DNA of 64,000 bases from a virus. Its lineage: Duplodnaviria > Caudoviricetes. Positions 16,146 through 63,815 of the stretch are shown here, in pieces (the stretch's first letter is position 1; each line of letters opens with the position of its first letter). The stretch lies in IMG/VR virus record IMGVR_UViG_3300027628_000010, positions 16,390-80,389 of that record; one strand, 5' to 3'. The notes beneath the pieces are model-generated. The model saw only the letters and a program-made list of their open reading frames with translations, did not search any database and had not been told where the DNA came from. The position numbers and the translations under genes are program-made.

Positions 16146-16573
16146 TGACCAAGATAGTTAGAGGACGAATTAGTATAGATTGGCAAACAACATTAGCCAT
16201 TGTTGCTCGAGGTCAATATGATGTTGAACAACGTTGCTGGTTACCTAAGTTACCTGAAGGAGTAACTGCACGATCTGTCCATAATAACTACGTAAGTGGC
16301 AGCTTTGATTACATCCTAGAGAGTGAAAAGCCTGTAGAAGGGTGGACACAAGAGGTTGAAGAAGGTACTGAGGTTCCCCTATCTCAGTCATGGGCTATGA
16401 TGTGTAAAGTTGTACACACAGCAAAAGAGCCAGAGAACATTATTAAGACTATGACTCTACAAAGGCTGCTGATGAACATTAACAATGATCTTCGAGAGGA
16501 TGCGGATTCAGGTATTAAAATGAGCATGACGATCGAAGAATACCTTAACAACTTATATAACGAAACGGAATAA
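16145..16573 (+). CDS. Hypothetical protein
   Basis: ATG at 16145 overlaps the resolvase stop; RBS ggagg. Confidence 0.6.
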   Translation: MTKIVRGRISIDWQTTLAIVARGQYDVEQRCWLPKLPEGVTARSVHNNYVSGSFDYILESEKPVEGWTQEVEEGTEVPLSQSWAMMCKVVHTAKEPENIIKTMTLQRLLMNINNDLREDADSGIKMSMTIEEYLNNLYNETE

Positions 16574-39234: not shown

Positions 39235-39455
39235 ACATAGAACCATATAACCCGGAGGACCTTAATTTCATCGAAGAAGTACATAATGTCGAAACATATA
39301 CAGGGGAAACTTCTAAACAGTTTCCCGGGCATACCTTTGTAAGAGTAGAGTTAACTATCAGTAGAGGCTCAACAGGAGCTACCCAGAAACTGTATCGTAT
39401 CTGGACTGCTGATAGATGGAACGTAATTAAAGAACGAGGATACTTTATCCAATAA
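39231..39455 (+). CDS. Hypothetical protein (74 aa)
   Basis: ATGA overlap. Confidence 0.65.
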   Translation: MNIEPYNPEDLNFIEEVHNVETYTGETSKQFPGHTFVRVELTISRGSTGATQKLYRIWTADRWNVIKERGYFIQ

Positions 39456-48930: not shown

Positions 48931-49902
48931 ATGAGCAAATATAAATTACGGTTAAATGAGCAGGAGACATTAGCAATGATCGAAAAGGCACAAGCTGGAG
49001 ATAAAGATGCAGCAGATGTATTGTTTAGAGCTAATGAGGGAATTATCTGGACTATTATAAAGCCATCTATCGGTAAAGGCGGTAAATCTAAAGAAGACAT
49101 CTTTCAGGTAGCTTGTATAGGGTTTCTAAAAGCCGTTTATAACTATAACCCGGAGATTGCTAAGTTCGGTACATTCCTAAATATTAAAGTGAGTGGAGAA
49201 TTAAGAAGATACTTTCGAGATAATCAGAGTGTCATCCACGTTCCACGAACTATTAAAGAACTAGGCGCTAAAATCTTAATGCACCAGCTACGAGATGAGT
49301 CTTTCGAAGTTATAAAAGAGAAGTTAGGTGTTACAAATGATAGACTACTTGCGGATACTCTGAATTATATAAACAGAGGTACAGCTCATGTAAGTTCTCT
49401 ATATACAGTAGTAGTTGAGGGAGAAGGAGAGGACCTTACATTAGAAGATCAATTAGCTGGAGATTTAAACGGAGCTGATTGGGAAGATGACTTAGTACTC
49501 CTAACTTCTGTAAAAGAAGCGATTAACTGCTTAACTGACAGAGAGCAGGTAGTTATTCGTAGTAAGTATATCGAAAATAAATCACAAGTTGAGATAGGTA
49601 AGGAACTCGGTATTTCACAGATGCAGGTATCTCGTATAGAGCGTAAGGCGTTGCTTAAGTTAAAAACAATTATAACGCAAGAGCTAAGCACGAAGGAACC
49701 TATTACTGAAGAGATGCTGCCCGGTTATAAACCTAGAAAAGCTCCAAAAGCTCAAGAATCTAGAGGGGACCGTGCAGAAGCTATTCGTCTAATACAAGAA
49801 ACAGAGTTAACATTTGCAGAGATTAGCAGAATCACAGGTGTACCTAAAACAAGCGTATCTGATTTAAACCGTAGAATGATTAAAAAAGCTGTTGCCAAAT
49901 AA
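48931..49902 (+). CDS. SigF/SigG-like sigma factor with extra C-terminal HTH
   Basis: AQAGDKDA, EDIFQVACIGFLKAV, GELRRYFRD...IHVPR, and region 4 SQVEIGKELGISQMQVSRIERKAL. Confidence 0.9.
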   Translation: MSKYKLRLNEQETLAMIEKAQAGDKDAADVLFRANEGIIWTIIKPSIGKGGKSKEDIFQVACIGFLKAVYNYNPEIAKFGTFLNIKVSGELRRYFRDNQSVIHVPRTIKELGAKILMHQLRDESFEVIKEKLGVTNDRLLADTLNYINRGTAHVSSLYTVVVEGEGEDLTLEDQLAGDLNGADWEDDLVLLTSVKEAINCLTDREQVVIRSKYIENKSQVEIGKELGISQMQVSRIERKALLKLKTIITQELSTKEPITEEMLPGYKPRKAPKAQESRGDRAEAIRLIQETELTFAEISRITGVPKTSVSDLNRRMIKKAVAK

Positions 49903-56459: not shown

Positions 56460-56620
56460 TGAGAAGAACGTTCTGGATGAAAGGGTCCGATACACAGGGA
56501 GACGGAATGCATGTTTCGTTCTCCTCTTATTGGAAAATGCTCTGCTACCGAGATAATAATGAGCCTGTAACAGGAGAGAAAATTAAGATCAGCTATATGG
56601 AGTATGATGACTTAAGATAA
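56459..56620 (+). CDS. Hypothetical protein
   Basis: RBS gaggagg before the ATG at 56459. Confidence 0.55.
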   Translation: MRRTFWMKGSDTQGDGMHVSFSSYWKMLCYRDNNEPVTGEKIKISYMEYDDLR

Positions 56621-56650
56621 GTAGAGGGACTTACCCTCTACTTTTTTTTT
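56619..56650 (+). terminator. Strong Rho-independent terminator insulating the ParM module
   Basis: aagtagaggg-actta-ccctctactt followed by a long T-run. Confidence 0.88.
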
Positions 56651-56786
56651 AATTTTTTTTATTGGTACAGACAATAAAAGTCAACATCCTCCATATACTT
56701 GAAGTATAGAAAATGTAATACAAAATCACACGAAGTAACACAAAGTATTAAAAAGTGTGACACACCAAAATTAGGAGGAATTTAAG

Positions 56787-57824
56787 ATGAGAAAACAAGA
56801 TGAGAATGTAAACGTAAAGGCACTAGATGATGGCTATGGGGATACTAAGTATGATAAGAACGGTACACCTGAACATATCCCTTCATTTGTTACTTCATTT
56901 AAACCAAAGCCAAAGGATGACTTCTCTAGTGATAGTAAGCTAAAGTACATTGCAGTAGAAATTGACGGTGAACGTTATGTAGTAGGTGATTACGCTATGA
57001 AACTTGACCCGGATATTAGATGGAATGCAGCAGATCATAAACATAGTACAGCTAACTTCGATATCTTACTCAAAACATCTCTAGGGCTTATGAGCTCCGG
57101 GCACGGAGAAGTAATTGACCTTCTAATGATGAATCTTCCTTTAAAGTTCGATACACCTGAACGTAGATTTGATTTGATGAGAGCAGCAGGCGGTCCCCAC
57201 GAAGTAGGTATTTCATTTGATGGAATTAACTTTGTTAAAAAGAATATTAATGTAGAGGATGTAGATATTAAGAAGCAAGGGTTTGGTAGCTTGTGTGACA
57301 TCATGTTAGATGATGTTGGAGAGATTTCAGACAGAGAGTTAGCTAAAGGATTTAATGTAATAGTAGATATTGGTTCTCGTACTTTAAATATCCTAACTGT
57401 AGATGCACTTGAAGAGCAGCAGGCACTCTCTACACAAGATAACCAAGGGATGTTTAAATCTTACCTACAGATCGGACGTTTCCTTGAAGATGAGTTAGGC
57501 ACCACTATTCCAGACGGAAAGCTTCCGGGTATTATCAGAGCCAGAGAAATTCGTGGAAGAGATATTAGCCAAGTGATTGACAGAGCTTATGAGATACACG
57601 CTAATAACATTGTCTCTACTTTAAATACAGTTCTACTTGACTCATGGGCATTTGTTAATAACGTGATCTTCACTGGAGGCGGAGCGGAAGTATTAGCTCC
57701 TCACTTAGCAGGAAAGATTGACAGAGCTAATGTATTAACGCTAGGACGCTATTCTAACGTGAGAGGCTTACGCAAATACGGGTTGAGGTCAGCCCGAAGA
57801 AACATTAAGCGTAATGTGAGGTAA
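56787..57824 (+). CDS. parM: ParM/StbA-family actin-like ATPase (Alp)
   Basis: Phosphate-1 LDDGYGDTK, NLP, connect-1 QGFGS, phosphate-2 VDIGSRT and adenosine TGGGA motifs. Confidence 0.88.
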   Translation: MRKQDENVNVKALDDGYGDTKYDKNGTPEHIPSFVTSFKPKPKDDFSSDSKLKYIAVEIDGERYVVGDYAMKLDPDIRWNAADHKHSTANFDILLKTSLGLMSSGHGEVIDLLMMNLPLKFDTPERRFDLMRAAGGPHEVGISFDGINFVKKNINVEDVDIKKQGFGSLCDIMLDDVGEISDRELAKGFNVIVDIGSRTLNILTVDALEEQQALSTQDNQGMFKSYLQIGRFLEDELGTTIPDGKLPGIIRAREIRGRDISQVIDRAYEIHANNIVSTLNTVLLDSWAFVNNVIFTGGGAEVLAPHLAGKIDRANVLTLGRYSNVRGLRKYGLRSARRNIKRNVR

Positions 57825-57829
57825 TTATT

Positions 57830-58123
57830 ATGGGTAGCCGTTATTCACTCTATATCAGACCGACAAAAGATTCAGACATTTTAGAATATTTAAAACCATT
57901 ACTTGAAAGGGAAGAGTTTTCCTTAGTTGTCCGCAGCCTAATACGGGACGGTATAAAGTATCGTTCCGTAGAATATAAACCACCAACACAACCTTCTGCA
58001 TCCCCTGTACACTTCTACAATAATACAAACACACAAAGTAATACACTCGATTTTTCAGATATCAAAATGGAGAAAAAAGAGGTTGACCAAGAGGAGTTAG
58101 ACAAACGTTTAGATGACTTTTAA
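57830..58123 (+). CDS. ParR-like ribbon-helix-helix adaptor
   Basis: N-terminal beta-strand RYSLYI plus helices (DSDILEYL...SLVVRSLIRDGI), flexible linker and acidic C-terminal helix; directly after parM. Confidence 0.7.
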   Translation: MGSRYSLYIRPTKDSDILEYLKPLLEREEFSLVVRSLIRDGIKYRSVEYKPPTQPSASPVHFYNNTNTQSNTLDFSDIKMEKKEVDQEELDKRLDDF

Positions 58124-58156
58124 GAGTATAAAGTAAGGATTTATAAACAAGCTAAC

Positions 58157-58260
58157 GTTTCCCTGTTTCCCATGTTTCCCCGTTTCCCGTGTTTCCCTCA
58201 ATTTTGGGTCGAAAACGGCGGTATAGAGCCATTTTAGGTATATGTATAGGGTAGGGAAAC
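58157..58260. repeat. 5x GTTTCCC direct-repeat array plus an inverted copy (centromere/loading-site candidate)
   Basis: Copies at 58157, 58165, 58174, 58182 and 58191 (period 8/9); GGGAAAC at 58254. Confidence 0.9.
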
Positions 58261-58309
58261 AGAGGGTAACGGCTACATTTTGGGTAGATAAAAGGGAGGT
58301 AATTTTACC

Positions 58310-58921
58310 GTGAAAGTGACATTTAACGGAGGAGAATTTTATAGAGTAACGACTCAATTCAATTCAGTGGATTCTCTGCATAAGAATGGGCATACAGGAA
58401 TTGATCTTTCAATGGAATCTGGCACGAAACTTTTGAGTCCGGCGGATGGAGTTGTGGAAAGAATTGTAGATTATGGTTCTCAAAATATTGGCAAAGGCGT
58501 AATAGTAAAAATAGAAAATGGAGATAGGTTGATTTTCGGTCACATGTCAGATACTTCCCAAGTTCATGTAGGTGATACACTTCATGCAGGGGATTTGGTG
58601 GGATTATCTGGAAATTCCGGCAGGAGTACTGGCGCACATTTACATTTTGGAGTTAAGGACCCTCAGAATAATTTTACAGACCCTGCCCCTTACCTTAACG
58701 GCGGTTCTGGCAAAGAAATAGTGCAAATGCCTTCTCCTGAAGGGTGTGGCGTATTTGAGAAGGCAGATGCAGCAAACATTGTAAGTGATTCAATGAGTAA
58801 GTTTGGCGATATGCTTTCTGATATGACAGTAAATTTTATAGACATTATTCATTTTACTCTATTACACGCCATTCCCATAATGTCTCGAGCACTAGGAGTA
58901 ATTCTTTCTTCGTTAAGTTAA
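58310..58921 (+). CDS. M23 (LytM) metallopeptidase with hydrophobic C-terminus
   Basis: HTGID, GHM, SGNSGRSTGAHLHF and DP..YL motifs; GTG start with RBS ggagg. Confidence 0.9.
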   Translation: MKVTFNGGEFYRVTTQFNSVDSLHKNGHTGIDLSMESGTKLLSPADGVVERIVDYGSQNIGKGVIVKIENGDRLIFGHMSDTSQVHVGDTLHAGDLVGLSGNSGRSTGAHLHFGVKDPQNNFTDPAPYLNGGSGKEIVQMPSPEGCGVFEKADAANIVSDSMSKFGDMLSDMTVNFIDIIHFTLLHAIPIMSRALGVILSSLS

Positions 58922-59024
58922 TTCCTTTTTTATCCTTTAAGGAATGAATAACCAACTCATCCACATTCTGTAATTGGCGTTCGTATCTTGGAATTGATGT
59001 ATCGTTGAATAGGTAACTAAACAT
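58854..59024 (-). CDS. 56-aa antisense protein (not in ORF track), possible wHTH fragment
   Basis: The minus strand reads AAGGAGG-9nt-ATG, giving MFSYLFNDTSIPRYERQLQNVDELVIHSLKDKKGINLTKKELLLVLETLWEWRVIE*. Confidence 0.75.
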   Translation of the reverse strand: MFSYLFNDTSIPRYERQLQNVDELVIHSLKDKKGINLTKKELLLVLETLWEWRVIE

Positions 59025-59046
59025 TTTTATCATCCTCCTTGGAGGA

Positions 59047-59076
59047 TAGTATGACCAAACTAAAATTAAAATATAC
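59047..59076 (-). promoter_or_regulatory. Sigma-G consensus promoter
   Basis: The minus strand reads GTATA-N18-CATACTA immediately upstream of the antisense gene's RBS. Confidence 0.7.
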
Positions 59077-59090
59077 TGGAGGAATTTAAA

Positions 59091-59312
59091 ATGGCAATTT
59101 TAGCAATCGCAGGCGGTATTGGTGTAGTATGTGTGGCAGGTTCAGCAACAGTGGCAGCGTTAAAGTTTTTTAATACATGGGAGCCAGATTTTAGTAAAGT
59201 AGGTAAGAAATCTTCTCATAAAGCAGGTAAAGGTCCTTCAAGTCATCGTGATAGTGAGCGTACAAACGGATTAAGAAATAAAATCGGCAACAATAACAGC
59301 ATTCACGAATAA
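59091..59312 (+). CDS. Small membrane-anchored protein (73 aa)
   Basis: N-terminal hydrophobic helix, basic/polar tail; RBS ggagg. Confidence 0.65.
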   Translation: MAILAIAGGIGVVCVAGSATVAALKFFNTWEPDFSKVGKKSSHKAGKGPSSHRDSERTNGLRNKIGNNNSIHE

Positions 59313-59339
59313 TAAAAAAAAATTAAGGGAGAGATAAAA

Positions 59340-59879
59340 ATGGTAAAAATTAATATGGGCGCAAAAAGTTTATCTGAAGGGGTAACATATATAAAGCCTC
59401 TAACTCAATTGAACGTAGGACGTACTGAACGAGAAGAGAAGGTACTTTTTACAGCGGAAAATCTACTTCAGGAGGTGATGGAAGCAGACGGAAATGTAAG
59501 ACATCGAAAAATAAAGTCACTAAAACGCATAATGAAGATTGCTCTAACAACGTTAGGGGTAACAGCTCAAATGGCTCCTCGAGCATTAGCGGCAACCGCA
59601 CAGACGGGTATAGCTCCGATAACTCCAGCAATGATAATGGATTATGGTCTTACTCTAGCCTTCATAGTGGTGTCGTGCGGTGTAGCCTTCGCCATGATCG
59701 GTCTAACATTAGCCGGGATAGCTCGAATGTTCAAGAGAAGAGATATAGCGACAGAATGGACTACGGATATAATCAAGGGTTTAGTGCAGGTATTAATCGC
59801 CATACCAGTTGTATTAGTTCTATTCTTCATAGCCCAACATCTATTTCAAGGCTTACCAAAGTTAGGAAGTCTCTTCTAA
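59340..59879 (+). CDS. TrbC/VirB2 pilin-like membrane protein
   Basis: Long leader ending in ALA|A, then two hydrophobic helices joined by a short basic loop (MFKRRDIATEW..IIKG). Confidence 0.45.
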   Translation: MVKINMGAKSLSEGVTYIKPLTQLNVGRTEREEKVLFTAENLLQEVMEADGNVRHRKIKSLKRIMKIALTTLGVTAQMAPRALAATAQTGIAPITPAMIMDYGLTLAFIVVSCGVAFAMIGLTLAGIARMFKRRDIATEWTTDIIKGLVQVLIAIPVVLVLFFIAQHLFQGLPKLGSLF

Positions 59880-61099
59880 GAGCATCTTTAATACCGTTTG
59901 CAGTTGTAACTTCTACTTTCATTACAGGATTATCCTCTCATGCATACGCCGCAGTTAAAAACCCTCAAGACATTACAGCTCATAAATCTAATCATGTTGA
60001 ACACCAAGGACCTATCGATACAGTTGTAGCCACATTCAAAGAATTTAATCAAACAGTTGCTTCTATAAAAGATTGGTTTGAGGGAGTACCTACTGATATT
60101 GCTCAAGGCTCTGTACACCTAATGGCGTGGCTATACGATTTGTGTGCCACGCTTATCCTGAAAACTCCGTTATGGATTTTCGATAACGAGTGGTTTGAAA
60201 ATACGACATATATGTTTAGTTTGTTATCCATAGGGCTTGTATCCACTTTAACCGTTGTAGAAGGCATAAAGCGTATGCTTTCAGGTATTAGGAAGAGTGG
60301 GTTTAAAGGAATTAAGGCTCCTATGGAACTGAAAGACATTATGAAGCGCTGGTTTATTGTGGCAGGCGTAACGACAGCCGTACCATTTGCTTTTCAAAAA
60401 GCATTCCAAGGACTAAACATTGCATCCGACTTCTTAATTGGAATGGGTAAGAGAACAATGGATAATGTAGCGGTCCCTGAAACTGTTTCATTAATCGATG
60501 CACTTACACTTACGGTATTCGATATTATTTTAATCTCAACGATCGTACCTATCTTATGGAAGAATGGACGGAGATTTTTCGACTTAATGCTGCTCGGCGT
60601 TACGTCTCCTCTCGCTTTAACGGCTTGGATTTTCGACCCGTACAGACATTACTTTAGTCAATGGTGGAGCAACTTAAAGCACTTATCAATGGTGCAAGTC
60701 TACTATTCTTTATTTCTACTTGTACTAGGCTGGTTTATCTTCGGGGTTCCGACTCCTGTACAGTTCTCTGGGCTTATTGTCAAGCTACTTATTACGATTG
60801 GAGGATTTGCTCGTATGGCTAACCCACCTCGTATTATTGCATCTAAGCTAGATACGGGTGGTGGATTTGATGATTATAATGCAACAAAGAAAAAGGTTGT
60901 ACAGAATTTTAAAGATACAAAAGCAATTATTGGAGGTCCCGTTTCTACAGGTAAAATGCTTTACGGTAAAATAACTACGCCTACTGAAAGAGAAGGCGGA
61001 ACTCGTATGGAGCGTTATCATTCTAGAATGGAAAAGATCGGCTTAGCTAAGAAGAAACCAGAAGCACCGAAACCTACACCAAAACCAAGAAAACGATAA
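59756..61099 (+). CDS. Multi-pass membrane protein (TrbL/VirB6-like topology), start uncertain
   Basis: Signal-like AYA|A, about six hydrophobic helices including PLALTAWIFDP...FSQW, and a basic C-terminus. The ORF overlaps the previous gene in the -1 frame. Confidence 0.6.
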   Translation: MDYGYNQGFSAGINRHTSCISSILHSPTSISRLTKVRKSLLRASLIPFAVVTSTFITGLSSHAYAAVKNPQDITAHKSNHVEHQGPIDTVVATFKEFNQTVASIKDWFEGVPTDIAQGSVHLMAWLYDLCATLILKTPLWIFDNEWFENTTYMFSLLSIGLVSTLTVVEGIKRMLSGIRKSGFKGIKAPMELKDIMKRWFIVAGVTTAVPFAFQKAFQGLNIASDFLIGMGKRTMDNVAVPETVSLIDALTLTVFDIILISTIVPILWKNGRRFFDLMLLGVTSPLALTAWIFDPYRHYFSQWWSNLKHLSMVQVYYSLFLLVLGWFIFGVPTPVQFSGLIVKLLITIGGFARMANPPRIIASKLDTGGGFDDYNATKKKVVQNFKDTKAIIGGPVSTGKMLYGKITTPTEREGGTRMERYHSRMEKIGLAKKKPEAPKPTPKPRKR

Positions 61100-61111
61100 T
61101 AGGAGGAATAT

Positions 61112-61225
61112 ATGATGGCAACAACTACAGGGATTATCTTATTAAATTTGAGTATGCTTTTATTAAATACGGCGGTGACTACAATACATTCTGCAATGAT
61201 AGCAAAGGAGTTGCGTAAAAGATGA
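61112..61225 (+). CDS. 37-aa single-TM peptide (not in ORF track)
   Basis: RBS aggagg; MMATTTGIILLNLSMLLLNTAVTTIHSAMIAKELRKR*; its stop overlaps the FtsK start (ATGA). Confidence 0.65.
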   Translation: MMATTTGIILLNLSMLLLNTAVTTIHSAMIAKELRKR

Positions 61226-63588
61226 TTAAAGTTAACCCGGATTACCAAAACATTTCTAACTACTTTGTAGATACGGACAATATAGCTGAAGACTTGGCAC
61301 AAGTAATGAGCAAATTAAAGGATTCAGTGTTTGGCTTGGAATTATCCTATGCGGAAGGTGTAATGGATAAGATGATCATTACACCTCCCTATGTAAGACT
61401 TGACCAACGTAACGTACAGCCGTACAGAGAGTGTCCTACAGCAGAGTTTACTCCTTACGAGGGGTATTTATCGGAACCTCACTTTATGCCTCTGTACGGG
61501 GCTCTAGAGGGCAAATTAATGGAGGACTTGGCTAACTTGGAAGTGCATAAAAATGACAAGGTATGCATACAGTGGCTTTTCAAGCGTAAATATGGCTGGC
61601 AGGAGCAGGCATTTGAGATGTATGAGAGCTATCTGTTAGGAAATGGTAACCCTGCTAAGTCTAGGATTGGTAGACGCTTCCAATCTAAGGTGCTTGGTAT
61701 GCTAGATCGAGTAATTCCTGTCACTCATAACGACTACGTGGACGAAGTGGAAGAGAAGCTGCTTATGGAAGGCTTTCAGTTCCAACTACGTATAGCGGTC
61801 AAGTCTGAGCAGGAGGCTCGTATCAAAGAACAGCTTGTCTCTATCTTTAGTGAGTACGACTCGTACAACTCATTAAAATTATGTAGGGTCCGGGACAAAG
61901 AGTTTACTGCCTTGTACAATGATTGTATTATGACAGGCTACACCTATAATCAGATTATCAGTAAAAAGGAGCTGTTCTCCTTGGTAGGGGGGAAGCTTGT
62001 ATCTGAGCAAGTAGTTCCTGAAATGGCTGCTAAGCCTGTCTCTGTATCAAACGGTAATGCGCTGGAGTTGCTACCTGTTAATAATGCGAAGAGTGTAGAG
62101 CCAGACCACACGCTTGTAGAGCGCATAGCTAAGGCGCTGGTTCGAGTTAAACTTATAGAGAGGGCACAGCTATTCGACCCGGCTATTGCCTCTGGAGCAC
62201 GGCTTACAGTGGTTCAAACGAAGATACCTAAAGATCGTATTATTACCGACTTAGAGAAAAAAGCTAAAGCCATTCAAGCTGTTTTAAATGTAGATTCACT
62301 GACAATAGATCGAGGTGATGGGGAGGATAAGGTTAAATTTGTTATCCCTAATAAAGATACGGTCCCTATAGGTTTAAGGGAGCTAATGGAAATGGATGAG
62401 TTTAAAGAGTTTGCTTCTAAAGTAGAAAATGCTTTAGCCTTTGCAGTAGGTGTAGATGAATTTAATAAACCGATATACTTGTCCTTATCTAAACTTGTAC
62501 ACATGTTAATATCCGGGTCCACTAATAGTGGTAAGTCTGTCTGCATAAATAGTGTCGTAGTATCATTAATTGTTACGTATCCGCCAGAAATTCTTCAGTT
62601 TATCATGATTGACCCTGCAACAGTAGAAATGACTCAATATGAAGGATTTCCACACGTACAGAAAGTAGTTACAGACATGGACGAAGCAGCAAACGAACTT
62701 AGTGGCTTGTCCGCTGAAATGGACAGACGTTATAAGATATTAGGTAAGGCTCGAGTAAAAAATATATTAGAATATAATAAGAAAATGGATATTCCAATGC
62801 CTTTCCTAGTCTGTGTAATTGACGAGTATGCTGATCTCCATATGACGAACCCAGAGGTTAATGAATATGTAAGCCGTTTGGGGCAGAAGGCACGTAAAGT
62901 TGGTATTCACCTTATTATTGCTACACAACGTCCTAGTGCTAATGTGCTTGACGGAGATATTAAAGCTAACCTACAGAATGTGCTTTGTTTTAACTTAGGT
63001 AACAATAATAATTATAAAACAGTATTTGGTGAGGGAATTGGCAATACACAATTACTTGGCTATGGGGACGGTATGATGCGTATTGTAGGAGATGCCGCAG
63101 GCTATAGAAGATTTCAGGGAGCTATGATCTCACCTAACGGGACCAGTGAAGAAGAAATTTATGATAATTTACGTGCTTATTACAGTGGAATCCGGGTAAA
63201 CACATCTATAGAGGAATCCACCACCTCTACGCCAACTTCTGCTATAGAATCGGCTTCTGTTCCTCCTTCTATCCCTGTATCTGAGAATGTAGTTAAAAAT
63301 GAACCAGACCCTATTATAGAAGTAGTCCCAGAGGAAGAAGAGCCGACTGTAGAAGTACTGCCTTTAGATACAAATGAAGATGACCCATTGTATAAACTGA
63401 AACAATATATAGCAACTACTCGAGAAACTAGAGCTAGACAGCTTAGGGAACATTTAGGAATCAAAACAACTAAACTAACAGAATTAATGGGTATCTTAGT
63501 TGAAGAAGGCTGGTTAGAAAAAACAAAGTCCAAAGGTTATCAAATAATTGCTTCTGATTCTCTCTTATCTGAATGGATTTCCGATTAA
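61222..63588 (+). CDS. FtsK/SpoIIIE-family DNA translocase without N-terminal TM domain
   Basis: Alpha domain, Walker A GSTNSGKS, IDP, Walker B VIDEYADL, QKARKVGIHLIIATQRPS, P/E-rich linker and C-terminal wHTH. Confidence 0.9.
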   Translation: MIKVNPDYQNISNYFVDTDNIAEDLAQVMSKLKDSVFGLELSYAEGVMDKMIITPPYVRLDQRNVQPYRECPTAEFTPYEGYLSEPHFMPLYGALEGKLMEDLANLEVHKNDKVCIQWLFKRKYGWQEQAFEMYESYLLGNGNPAKSRIGRRFQSKVLGMLDRVIPVTHNDYVDEVEEKLLMEGFQFQLRIAVKSEQEARIKEQLVSIFSEYDSYNSLKLCRVRDKEFTALYNDCIMTGYTYNQIISKKELFSLVGGKLVSEQVVPEMAAKPVSVSNGNALELLPVNNAKSVEPDHTLVERIAKALVRVKLIERAQLFDPAIASGARLTVVQTKIPKDRIITDLEKKAKAIQAVLNVDSLTIDRGDGEDKVKFVIPNKDTVPIGLRELMEMDEFKEFASKVENALAFAVGVDEFNKPIYLSLSKLVHMLISGSTNSGKSVCINSVVVSLIVTYPPEILQFIMIDPATVEMTQYEGFPHVQKVVTDMDEAANELSGLSAEMDRRYKILGKARVKNILEYNKKMDIPMPFLVCVIDEYADLHMTNPEVNEYVSRLGQKARKVGIHLIIATQRPSANVLDGDIKANLQNVLCFNLGNNNNYKTVFGEGIGNTQLLGYGDGMMRIVGDAAGYRRFQGAMISPNGTSEEEIYDNLRAYYSGIRVNTSIEESTTSTPTSAIESASVPPSIPVSENVVKNEPDPIIEVVPEEEEPTVEVLPLDTNEDDPLYKLKQYIATTRETRARQLREHLGIKTTKLTELMGILVEEGWLEKTKSKGYQIIASDSLLSEWISD

Positions 63589-63612
63589 GCCTTATATAGG
63601 CTTATTTTTTTT
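63586..63612 (+). terminator. Rho-independent terminator
   Basis: taagcct-tatat-aggctta followed by a T-run. Confidence 0.75.
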
Positions 63613-63815
63613 ATTCCTGACAAAGTGCTTGTACTATATTAAATAGGACAAAATAAAAAATGTCCTATTTTTAACCCTTGATACATAAGGGTTTGTAGCT
63701 GTTTTTGCTTCTGAATGTGCCTATTTAATTTTATTGTCTCTGTATTATATATTTATAATATTATTATATATAAAATAATTACTATATAAATATAAGATAT
63801 AAATGTATATTAAGA
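63613..63815. other. AT-rich region with inverted TGTCCTATTT repeats; candidate replication origin 2
   Basis: aaataggaca-N10-tgtcctattt, palindrome aaccctt-gatacat-aagggtt, and about 75 bp of A/T; shares motifs with 3091-3335. Confidence 0.5.

Follow-up and report, generated by a model that had tools for sequence, protein, structure and literature searches.

We analysed a 64,000 nt stretch of DNA from a Caudoviricetes record (IMGVR_UViG_3300027628_000010, positions 16,390 to 80,389; hereafter the window, with positions counted from its first base unless another locus is named) and, near its 3′ end, a block of genes at 56619-63604 that carries an actin-like ATPase, a small adaptor candidate, a repeat array, an M23 metallopeptidase, a set of membrane proteins and an FtsK-type ATPase (Table 1). 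The window lies on a single 80-kb contig, with the end of the block 412 bases from the contig end, and this region shares 87.5% nucleotide identity with the Bacillus (Priestia) megaterium phage vB_BmeM-Goe8 (Goe8), a member of the Bastillevirinae (family Herelleviridae). A sequence-only reading of the window had singled out the block as a terminator-bounded set of an actin-like ATPase, a ribbon-helix-helix (RHH) adaptor, a repeat array, an M23 peptidase, three small membrane proteins, a multi-pass membrane protein and an FtsK motor. We recovered all of these elements at or near the places proposed for them, and found the main genes to lie on the plus strand between two hairpins with T-runs.

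Table 1. Features of the block and the sigma-factor gene of the same window (positions in the window; aa, amino acids; TM, transmembrane).
Feature	Position	Strand	Evidence and remarks
Intrinsic-terminator-like hairpin and T-run	56619-56643	+	Ends the upstream operon; left boundary of the block
Two iterons, GTAATACAAA and GTAACACAAA, 20 bp apart	56715-56744	+	Just 5′ of the actin-like gene; candidate centromere/operator
Actin-like ATPase (ParM/Alp superfamily), 345 aa	56787-57824	+	PF17989 5e-17; PF21522 3e-18; phrog_691 6e-95
Adaptor candidate, 97 aa	57830-58123	+	phrog_3536 1e-31; RHH-like (strand-helix-helix) N-terminus and acidic C-terminal tail, by eye
Repeat array	58157-58270		Five direct GTTTCCC (8-9 bp period), then inverted GGGAAAC and GGGTAAC; putative site of the ATPase winged helix
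M23 metallopeptidase, 203 aa	58310-58921	+	PF01551 6e-21; catalytic motifs intact
Conserved antisense gene, 56 aa	58854-59024	-	3′ end overlaps the end of the M23 gene
Forespore sigma-G-type promoter pattern, GTATA-N18-CATACTA	59047-59076	-	Followed by AAGGAGG and the ATG of the antisense gene
DUF7394 single-pass membrane protein, 73 aa	59091-59312	+	PF24126 7.5e-19; TM residues 1-28; basic tail
VirB2/TrbC-like pilin-like protein, 179 aa	59340-59879	+	phrog_3528
VirB6-like multi-pass membrane protein	59429-61099	+	phrog_3750 2e-153; first ATG at 59756 gives 447 aa
Membrane peptide, 37 aa	61112-61225	+	Strong ribosome-binding site; stop overlaps ATPase start (ATGA); below open reading frame cut-offs
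Soluble chimeric ATPase, 788 aa	61222-63588	+	PF01580 5e-43; phrog_3551
Intrinsic-terminator-like hairpin and T-run	63586-63604	+	Right boundary of the block
SigB/F/G-family sigma factor	48931-49902		SigF 2e-42 and SigG 6e-35 are the best-scoring models

The last gene of the block encodes what structural modelling predicts to be a chimeric ATPase, a new assignment, in which a VirB4 N-terminal-domain fold (residues 11-257) is joined to an FtsK alpha domain (293-382), an FtsK beta motor (approximately 400-650) and a C-terminal winged helix (approximately 715-788). The FtsK motor named in the sequence-only reading is well supported: in addition to its Pfam match, the motor aligned much better with solved structures of FtsK (2.4e-89) than with those of TcpA (2.6e-36) or EssC/EccC (1e-32 to 1e-46), residues 293-382 superposed on the FtsK alpha domain (Z 11.9, root-mean-square deviation (rmsd) 2.1), and no family member in the alignment departs from the GSGKS and DE motifs. 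Residues 11-257 matched the N-terminal domain of TrwK/VirB4 at rank 1 of 48,161 chains (Z 11.9, rmsd 3.3 over 205 residues), and Foldseek agreed. The same reading had stated that no VirB4 was present, which holds for the ATPase domain, as this is of FtsK type and scores 14 bits against a cut-off of 643 with the NCBIfam VirB4 model, but not for the N-terminal domain. Structure neighbours of this N-domain in the ESM Atlas included DUF8128, the N-domain of coupling-type ATPases, and it also resembled chain 6lar_G of ESX-3 (Z 8.7), probably an EccC domain of unknown function. Among the families listed there was no sequence-level match to DUF8128 or to the VirB4 N-domain, and by sequence the N-domain family is rare, with 57 cluster representatives in 1.84 billion proteins, nearly all of 700-800 aa. 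The NCBIfam models for TraB (NF041214; 56.9 bits against 800) and EssC (115 against 778) were likewise below cut-off. No transmembrane segment was found in the ATPase, nor any hydrophobic stretch outside the P-loop region, and its winged helix gave MarR/TrmB-type matches in 12 of 29 family members (best 6.6e-6). Neither a relaxase nor a VirD4-type coupling protein was found in the block, in keeping with the earlier remark that a relaxase was missing.

Upstream of the ATPase gene lie those of the predicted membrane partners and the hydrolase. The M23 metallopeptidase retains both zinc-binding motifs, HTGID at residue 28 (HxxxD) and HLH at residue 110 (HxH), as do its homologues at eight other loci (in BSP38 the HxxxD falls just upstream of the annotated start), and a C-terminal tail of approximately 45 aa is conserved in the same homologues. 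Look-alikes of the DUF7394 protein occupy the same position in phage, plasmid and chromosomal loci. The 179-aa protein has a long basic leader, a hydrophobic stretch running to Ala-x-Ala and two hydrophobic helices with a basic loop between them, a layout that suits a pilin of this type; four of 16 members of its family matched PF04956 (TrbC/VirB2; best 3.3e-7) and a Niallia plasmid homologue is named TrbC/VirB2 in RefSeq. We therefore place it, as a new assignment from family membership, among the probable VirB2/TrbC-like pilins. The multi-pass protein, for which there was no Pfam match, was modelled with 35 homologues (predicted local distance difference test, pLDDT, 68). All of the top eight matches of this model in a Foldseek search of the PDB were R388 TrwI/VirB6 chains (E from 2e-3), and an independent all-against-all aligner (VIA search) placed VirB6 at rank 1 (Z 7.4, 230 residues) and Legionella DotA at rank 2 (Z 7.0). 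This specificity for VirB6 is notable despite the modest scores, and points to a VirB6-like fold, also a new assignment; the phage record Atlee labels the gene TrbL. Counterparts of the 37-aa membrane peptide are annotated in Goe8, BSP38, Moonbeam, pBFI_1 and 0305phi8-36 (gp202), and five chromosomal loci have no room for it. The pilin-like, VirB6-like and conjugation-like character that had been proposed for these genes has thus gained support from homology or fold.

The pilin-like and VirB6-like (channel) genes overlap extensively. The channel gene sits in the -1 frame of the pilin-like gene, and this frame is open from 59429, reaching at least 400 nt into the pilin-like gene. Over the last 400 nt of the pilin-like gene the -1 frame is free of stops in 16 of 16 loci, compared with 11-27 stops in the +1 frame, and at each locus only 0-6% of synonymous-codon shuffles kept it open. 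Its opening lies 1-8 codons ahead of a conserved T-run (at approximately 59445-59452 in the window), which encodes an invariant Phe, and approximately 20 nt ahead of a conserved GGAGGTG. A channel start at the conserved ATG/GTG lying 124 nt inside the pilin-like gene was rejected as insufficient, because it would leave more than 400 nt of open -1 frame in all 16 loci unexplained; the codon itself arises from the invariant Trp codon of the pilin-like protein. Because the -1 frame is kept open, and because in three loci its sole start codon is the one 124 nt before the pilin stop, entry into the channel gene is likely to occur far upstream, most simply by a -1 frameshift, and a trans-frame form of the VirB6-like protein is likely to be made. 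No canonical X XXY YYZ slippery heptamer common to all loci was found.

The first two genes, together with the repeats before them, most likely form a type II (ParM-like) partition cassette. Both Pfam scores of the actin-like ATPase exceed the family cut-offs, placing the earlier identification of this protein on firm ground, and solved structures were matched in Ta0583 (1.6e-6) and ParM (3js6; 1.2e-4). The NCBIfam ParM equivalog scored 2e-20 but only 73 bits against a family cut-off of 417, so the protein is better regarded as an Alp relative than as R1 ParM itself. The adaptor candidate begins 6 nt past the actin-like stop and has the size and position expected of ParR. That a small gene stands in the right place for an RHH adaptor was therefore correct, but the RHH identity is suggested by a sequence pattern, and no Pfam, NCBIfam or PDB match was obtained. 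Just 5′ of the actin-like gene, the pattern GTAA[TC]ACAAA has its only two matches in the whole 80-kb contig, both of them the upstream iterons. Relatives carry iterons at the same position, and their sequence varies with the type of adaptor: GTAATAC-like iterons accompany a related adaptor, approximately six copies of TTTGAAAC accompany a different adaptor of approximately 105 aa, and in loci with a TubR-like gene a palindrome stands before that gene. Iterons of the GTAATACAAA type are thus most likely the centromere/operator of the partition pair.

The repeat array between the adaptor and M23 genes was confirmed, with the five direct copies at 58157-58197 and the inverted GGGAAAC and GGGTAAC at 58254 and 58264, but it is probably not the ParR centromere. 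Five of the six plus-strand copies of GTTTCCC in the contig fall in the array (1.7 expected), which shares the top rank for hexamer-cluster density in the window with a tie. The same direct-then-inverted layout of a T-T-N-C-C-C motif was seen in Goe8, BSP38, TsarBomba and loci L008 and L010-L016, regardless of partition type. The motif differs between loci, being GTTTCCC in the window and Goe8, TTTTCCC in L008, AATTCCC in TsarBomba and TTACC(C/G) in seven bacterial loci that span three adaptor types, one of them a TubR-like gene. At the start of helix 3 in the winged helix-turn-helix (HTH) of the ATPase, the TTACC(C/G) loci read (G/K)(I/M)RIN and the TTTCCC group G(I/V)K..K. Because the motif tracks the winged helix of the ATPase and not the partition adaptor, the array is more likely a loading site for the pump than a centromere, and we consider it the probable recognition site of the winged helix, which would make it comparable to the FtsK orienting polar sequences (KOPS), the SpoIIIE recognition sequences (SRS) or the clt repeats of Streptomyces. 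A genome-wide polar motif of the KOPS kind was rejected, as each strand of the contig has six copies of GTTTCCC and the array accounts for five of those on the plus strand. The sole plus-strand copy elsewhere forms part of an inverted pair, GGGAAAC-N9-GTTTCCC (39304-39326), which may reflect chance, a hairpin or an additional binding site. In Goe8 (L001, 7545-8225) and Moonbeam (L004, 5443-6153) the adaptor and M23 genes are separated by an inserted HNH homing-endonuclease gene on the opposite strand, which in Goe8 adjoins the array; there is none in the window, BSP38 or TsarBomba.

The sequence-only reading had treated the block as one machine, and its distribution is in agreement with this. 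Phage records with the adaptor numbered 160, those with the channel 162 and those with the full-length ATPase 159; almost all are of Bacillus phages, and gene order in the block was the same in the four genera inspected. Co-occurrence inside the subfamily is weak evidence for a unit because those genomes are syntenic throughout; more telling is that the same block turns up in elements with which the phage has no further gene in common. At all of ten bacterial genome loci the channel gene adjoined the ATPase gene, a pilin-like gene was detected in nine and an M23 gene lay upstream in five, and the flanks contained no homologue of the other approximately 100 open reading frames of the phage contig. 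Nine of the ten had a cytomotive NTPase gene on the same strand, 2-3 kb upstream; seven of these genes were actin-like and two were tubulin/FtsZ-like (TubZ-like), each of the latter preceded by an open reading frame for a winged-helix-like protein of TubR size. Judged by position, tubulin for actin is a non-orthologous replacement, which argues that the pump is coupled to filament-driven DNA positioning as such. The channel gene was also found on twelve large plasmids of the Bacillus group, Niallia and Arthrobacter. In the three plasmid contexts inspected, genes for the small membrane protein, the pilin-like protein, the channel and the ATPase were all present and the tiny peptide was annotated in one; the pump followed an HTH regulator, and no partition gene was recognised nearby. 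The unrelated jumbo phage 0305phi8-36 has the same order from gp207 to gp200. These comparisons indicate that the block is a single, portable module. Five of the chromosomal-element flanks (L012, L014, L010, L013 and L016) also share a PhoH-like ATPase, an 830-930-aa protein with no clear family match, GIY-YIG or HNH nucleases, a RecD2 or UvrD helicase, a ParB_N protein and an HTH_36 protein, and in L008 a tyrosine integrase immediately follows the ATPase gene.

The sequence-only reading had also suggested that the block had not been characterised as one system, which needs correction, as a homologous operon has been published. In 0305phi8-36, Pathria et al. (2012; PMC3357382) recognised orf200-207 as a 'DNA translocation operon' with genes for a relaxase, a VirB6 homologue, an MreB-like protein and a VirD4-like ATPase that lacks a membrane domain, proposed that it serves particle-free cell-to-cell propagation in biofilms, and found plaque size and titre unchanged on its deletion. 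By gene order and homology the block is best classed as a variant of that operon. An actin-like gene and genes for a small protein, a pilin-like protein, a VirB6-like protein, a peptide of approximately 39 aa and a soluble ATPase follow one another in the same order in both, and homology was detected for the ATPase N-domain (hhalign 96.7%, 3.7e-10), the pilin-like protein (gp204; hhalign 97.7%) and the channel (tblastn 2e-14). In contrast, the motor of 0305phi8-36 gives a weak TraG/VirD4-type Pfam match (E 0.025), whereas here there is a genuine FtsK alpha/beta motor with a winged helix; its ATPase gene is followed by a Replic_Relax/MobC-like relaxase gene (E 6.2e-5, just below the Pfam cut-off) that has no equivalent here; and the M23 gene and the T-T-N-C-C-C array are features of the present block. 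The 2012 paper (PMC3357382) makes no mention of a pilin-like gene, a VirB4-type N-domain, an array, tubulin variants or the gene overlap. No publication on the FtsK-type Bastillevirinae block as a system came up in our literature searches; in the genome paper of Bc431v3, SigF/G genes, a segregation gene and an FtsK-like gene are picked out as unusual genes related to sporulation (PMC3601020).

Comparison with better-known systems leads us to place the block, by their defining features, outside the type IV secretion system (T4SS), TraB and type VII secretion families. With the T4SS core (R388 TrwI/VirB6 and TrwK/VirB4, VirB2/TrbC and a VirB1-type hydrolase) it shows resemblance in three components by fold or family and has a wall hydrolase in common, and its small membrane peptide just precedes the ATPase as VirB3 precedes VirB4. 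However, it has no VirB4 ATPase domain, VirD4, relaxase or VirB8-, VirB9- or VirB10-like part, its motor is of the double-stranded-DNA type and its hydrolase is an M23 protein with no export signal. The Streptomyces TraB/clt system similarly has a single FtsK-family motor with a C-terminal winged helix, direct repeats of approximately 8 bp near the gene as the likely site, no relaxase, and small membrane proteins alongside; TraB, unlike the block ATPase (57 bits against the NCBIfam cut-off of 800), has its own membrane anchor, and the Streptomyces system has neither VirB2- and VirB6-like partners nor an attached actin or tubulin cassette. FtsK and SpoIIIE have the same two motor domains, alpha and beta, and likewise end in a winged helix, but here a VirB4-type domain replaces the N-terminal membrane domain, the winged helix is not detectably a gamma domain and the putative target motif is a local array as opposed to one skewed genome-wide. 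EssC/EccC of type VII secretion are membrane-anchored with three tandem FtsK-like domains, as against one domain and no transmembrane segment in the block ATPase. The partition cassette resembles ParMRC, AlfAB, Alp7AR, AlpAC of CGP3 and the actin-like protein systems of Bp8p-C/T in that the gene next to that of the actin-like ATPase encodes a small adaptor, here a candidate one, and in that iterons lie close by; it differs in an adaptor of no detectable family and in its physical coupling to a membrane DNA pump. Bp8p-C appears in two sources (PMC8026635, PMC11526630) as a plasmid prophage, confirmed by experiment, that relies on a ParM-like protein with an adaptor, linking such a pair to plasmid-like carriage. 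As the block is carried by Bp8p-T, a near-twin of Bp8p-C, the earlier view that lysogeny was not indicated is not supported.

On balance, and with slightly more confidence than doubt, we interpret the block as a bipartite module in which a partition cassette is combined with a minimal, T4SS-derived pump that moves double-stranded phage DNA across a membrane or septum. The partition cassette would position extrachromosomal phage DNA, and the pump would consist of the M23 hydrolase, the DUF7394 protein, the VirB2-like pilin-like protein, the VirB6-like channel, the tiny peptide and the soluble ATPase. The winged helix would read the T-T-N-C-C-C array between the two cassettes, in the manner of FtsK with KOPS or Streptomyces TraB with clt, the VirB4-type N-domain would dock the motor onto the membrane proteins and the M23 hydrolase would open the wall locally, such that filament-positioned double-stranded phage DNA could be pumped over the membrane or septum with no nicking. 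The setting would likely be a non-lysing state (plasmid-like carriage, sporulating cells or cell chains) and not the lytic burst, and the destination the forespore or a sister cell. The analysis establishes which genes make up the block, their homologies and folds, their joint inheritance and the presence of two kinds of cis site; from these we infer that DNA is the substrate, which protein would bind which site, and in what direction and to what destination transport would run.

A narrower alternative, put forward in the sequence-only reading and judged unlikely here, is that the module serves specifically for forespore delivery: the filament would bring phage DNA to the pole, the pump would take it across the sporulation septum and the phage would be carried in the spore. 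All hosts are spore formers, the M23 fold is common to SpoIIQ (a weak NCBIfam match, 1e-4), and sigma factors are close at hand. The sequence-only reading had invoked a sigma-G promoter inside the block together with a SigF/G-like sigma factor elsewhere in the window, and both are present (Table 1). The sigma-G-type pattern is identical in Goe8, has an N17 spacer in BSP38 and a weaker -10 in TsarBomba, and is kept in three genera; it has one match in 80 kb where shuffled sequences give 1.7, so the promoter match is insignificant by count alone, and its use as a general phage promoter was rejected on the same single match. The gene that it precedes has homologues at the same position in Goe8, BSP38, TsarBomba, L008 and L009, annotated in Goe8 and TsarBomba. 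It is this antisense gene only, and none of the main plus-strand genes, that has a sigma-F/G-type promoter, and the effect of antisense transcription might just as well be to shut the block down in the forespore. Sigma genes adjoin the block in TsarBomba, where two stand directly 5′ of the actin-like gene, and in Bc431v3 (PMC3601020), but host SpoIIIE already moves septum-trapped DNA, and the need for forespore delivery is less obvious on the megaplasmids that also carry the module. The SigF/G-like sigma factor of the window has an additional C-terminal HTH past region 4 (HTH_23/MarR_2-type matches at residues 280-319). A sigma-70 promoter scan returned 28 sites against 25.8 expected from shuffles, that is, no excess, and a 10-bp perfect inverted repeat (AAATAGGACA ... 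TGTCCTATTT) with a very AT-rich tract occupies 63613-63815, just past the ATPase terminator and before the next promoter-like sites; the sequence-only reading had separately marked this tract as origin-like.

It is less plausible still that the block houses two unrelated neighbouring functions, with the ParM/ParR pair for plasmid-like carriage only and the FtsK cassette for something else, such as host takeover, superinfection exclusion, or a role at the membrane in resolving and anchoring replicating concatemers. Pumps on megaplasmids, which have no adjoining partition gene or array, are in line with this reading, as is AlpC/AlpA of prophage CGP3, which works without a pump (PMC4446434), and synteny within one phage subfamily, where the whole genome is syntenic, says little to the contrary. 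Yet the linkage recurs in three unrelated backgrounds (Bastillevirinae, 0305phi8-36 and chromosomal elements, the flanks of the last sharing no other gene with the phage) and outlasts the replacement of actin by tubulin. A protein secretion device, in which the FtsK-family ATPase exports the M23 protein or other phage proteins through the VirB6-like channel on the model of EssC of type VII secretion or of effector-translocating type IV ATPases, would suit the conserved tail and missing signal peptide of the M23 protein, the clear motor kinship with EssC/EccC and the N-domain resemblance to 6lar_G, but is very improbable, as the motor, alpha domain included, is much nearer to FtsK than to EssC, has a single ATPase domain instead of three and ends in a putative DNA-binding winged helix, a conserved repeat array goes with the ATPase, and TsarBomba keeps its pump in the absence of an M23 gene.

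Several observations weigh against the bipartite module as drawn here. The M23 protein has no N-terminal signal peptide in any of the nine loci examined, and TsarBomba has no M23 gene at all yet retains the array, the antisense gene and the pump (L003, 6605-6980). The pilin-like protein of the window itself falls below every TrbC threshold, and the VirB6 matches are modest (Foldseek E of approximately 2e-3, and a Z of 7.4 that is ordinary for helical proteins). A search for an FtsK gamma domain, suggested by the earlier reading, found the C-terminal winged helix, but this had no sequence match to FtsK_gamma or to solved gamma domains. The link between array and winged helix depends on three discriminating loci, which are few and related, and the bacterial loci are confounded by relatedness and by a common XRE regulator that could bind the array; plasmid versions have neither the array nor a partition gene nearby. 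Finally, VirB8-like, VirB10-like and other envelope-spanning parts were not found, and crossing of the wall and of a second membrane is thus unexplained.

A bolder form of the bipartite module, which we advance tentatively and as less probable than not, is that the block represents a DNA-transfer machine of a kind not classified before, a pump that is powered by FtsK, needs no relaxase, is assembled on T4SS membrane parts and is fed by an actin or tubulin filament. A jumbo phage, megaplasmids, integrated elements and approximately 160 'virulent' Bacillus phages would have this machine in common, and with it a phage genome would cross a septum to the forespore or a sister cell as naked double-stranded DNA, with no virus particle. 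The comparative data predict a pairing of protein and array, a need of the motor for the membrane proteins and a trans-frame channel protein, and the question is a tractable one, given that a related phage forms normal plaques when its block is deleted and that the B. subtilis hosts of close relatives are genetically tractable. If the module does move DNA, it would be a third route of phage spread beside virions and lysogeny, and a Firmicute counterpart of the actinomycete TraB system. It could then explain how 'strictly lytic' Bacillus phages persist through sporulation or within cell chains and biofilms, a matter of interest for phage ecology and for the use of these phages in biocontrol of the B. 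cereus group.

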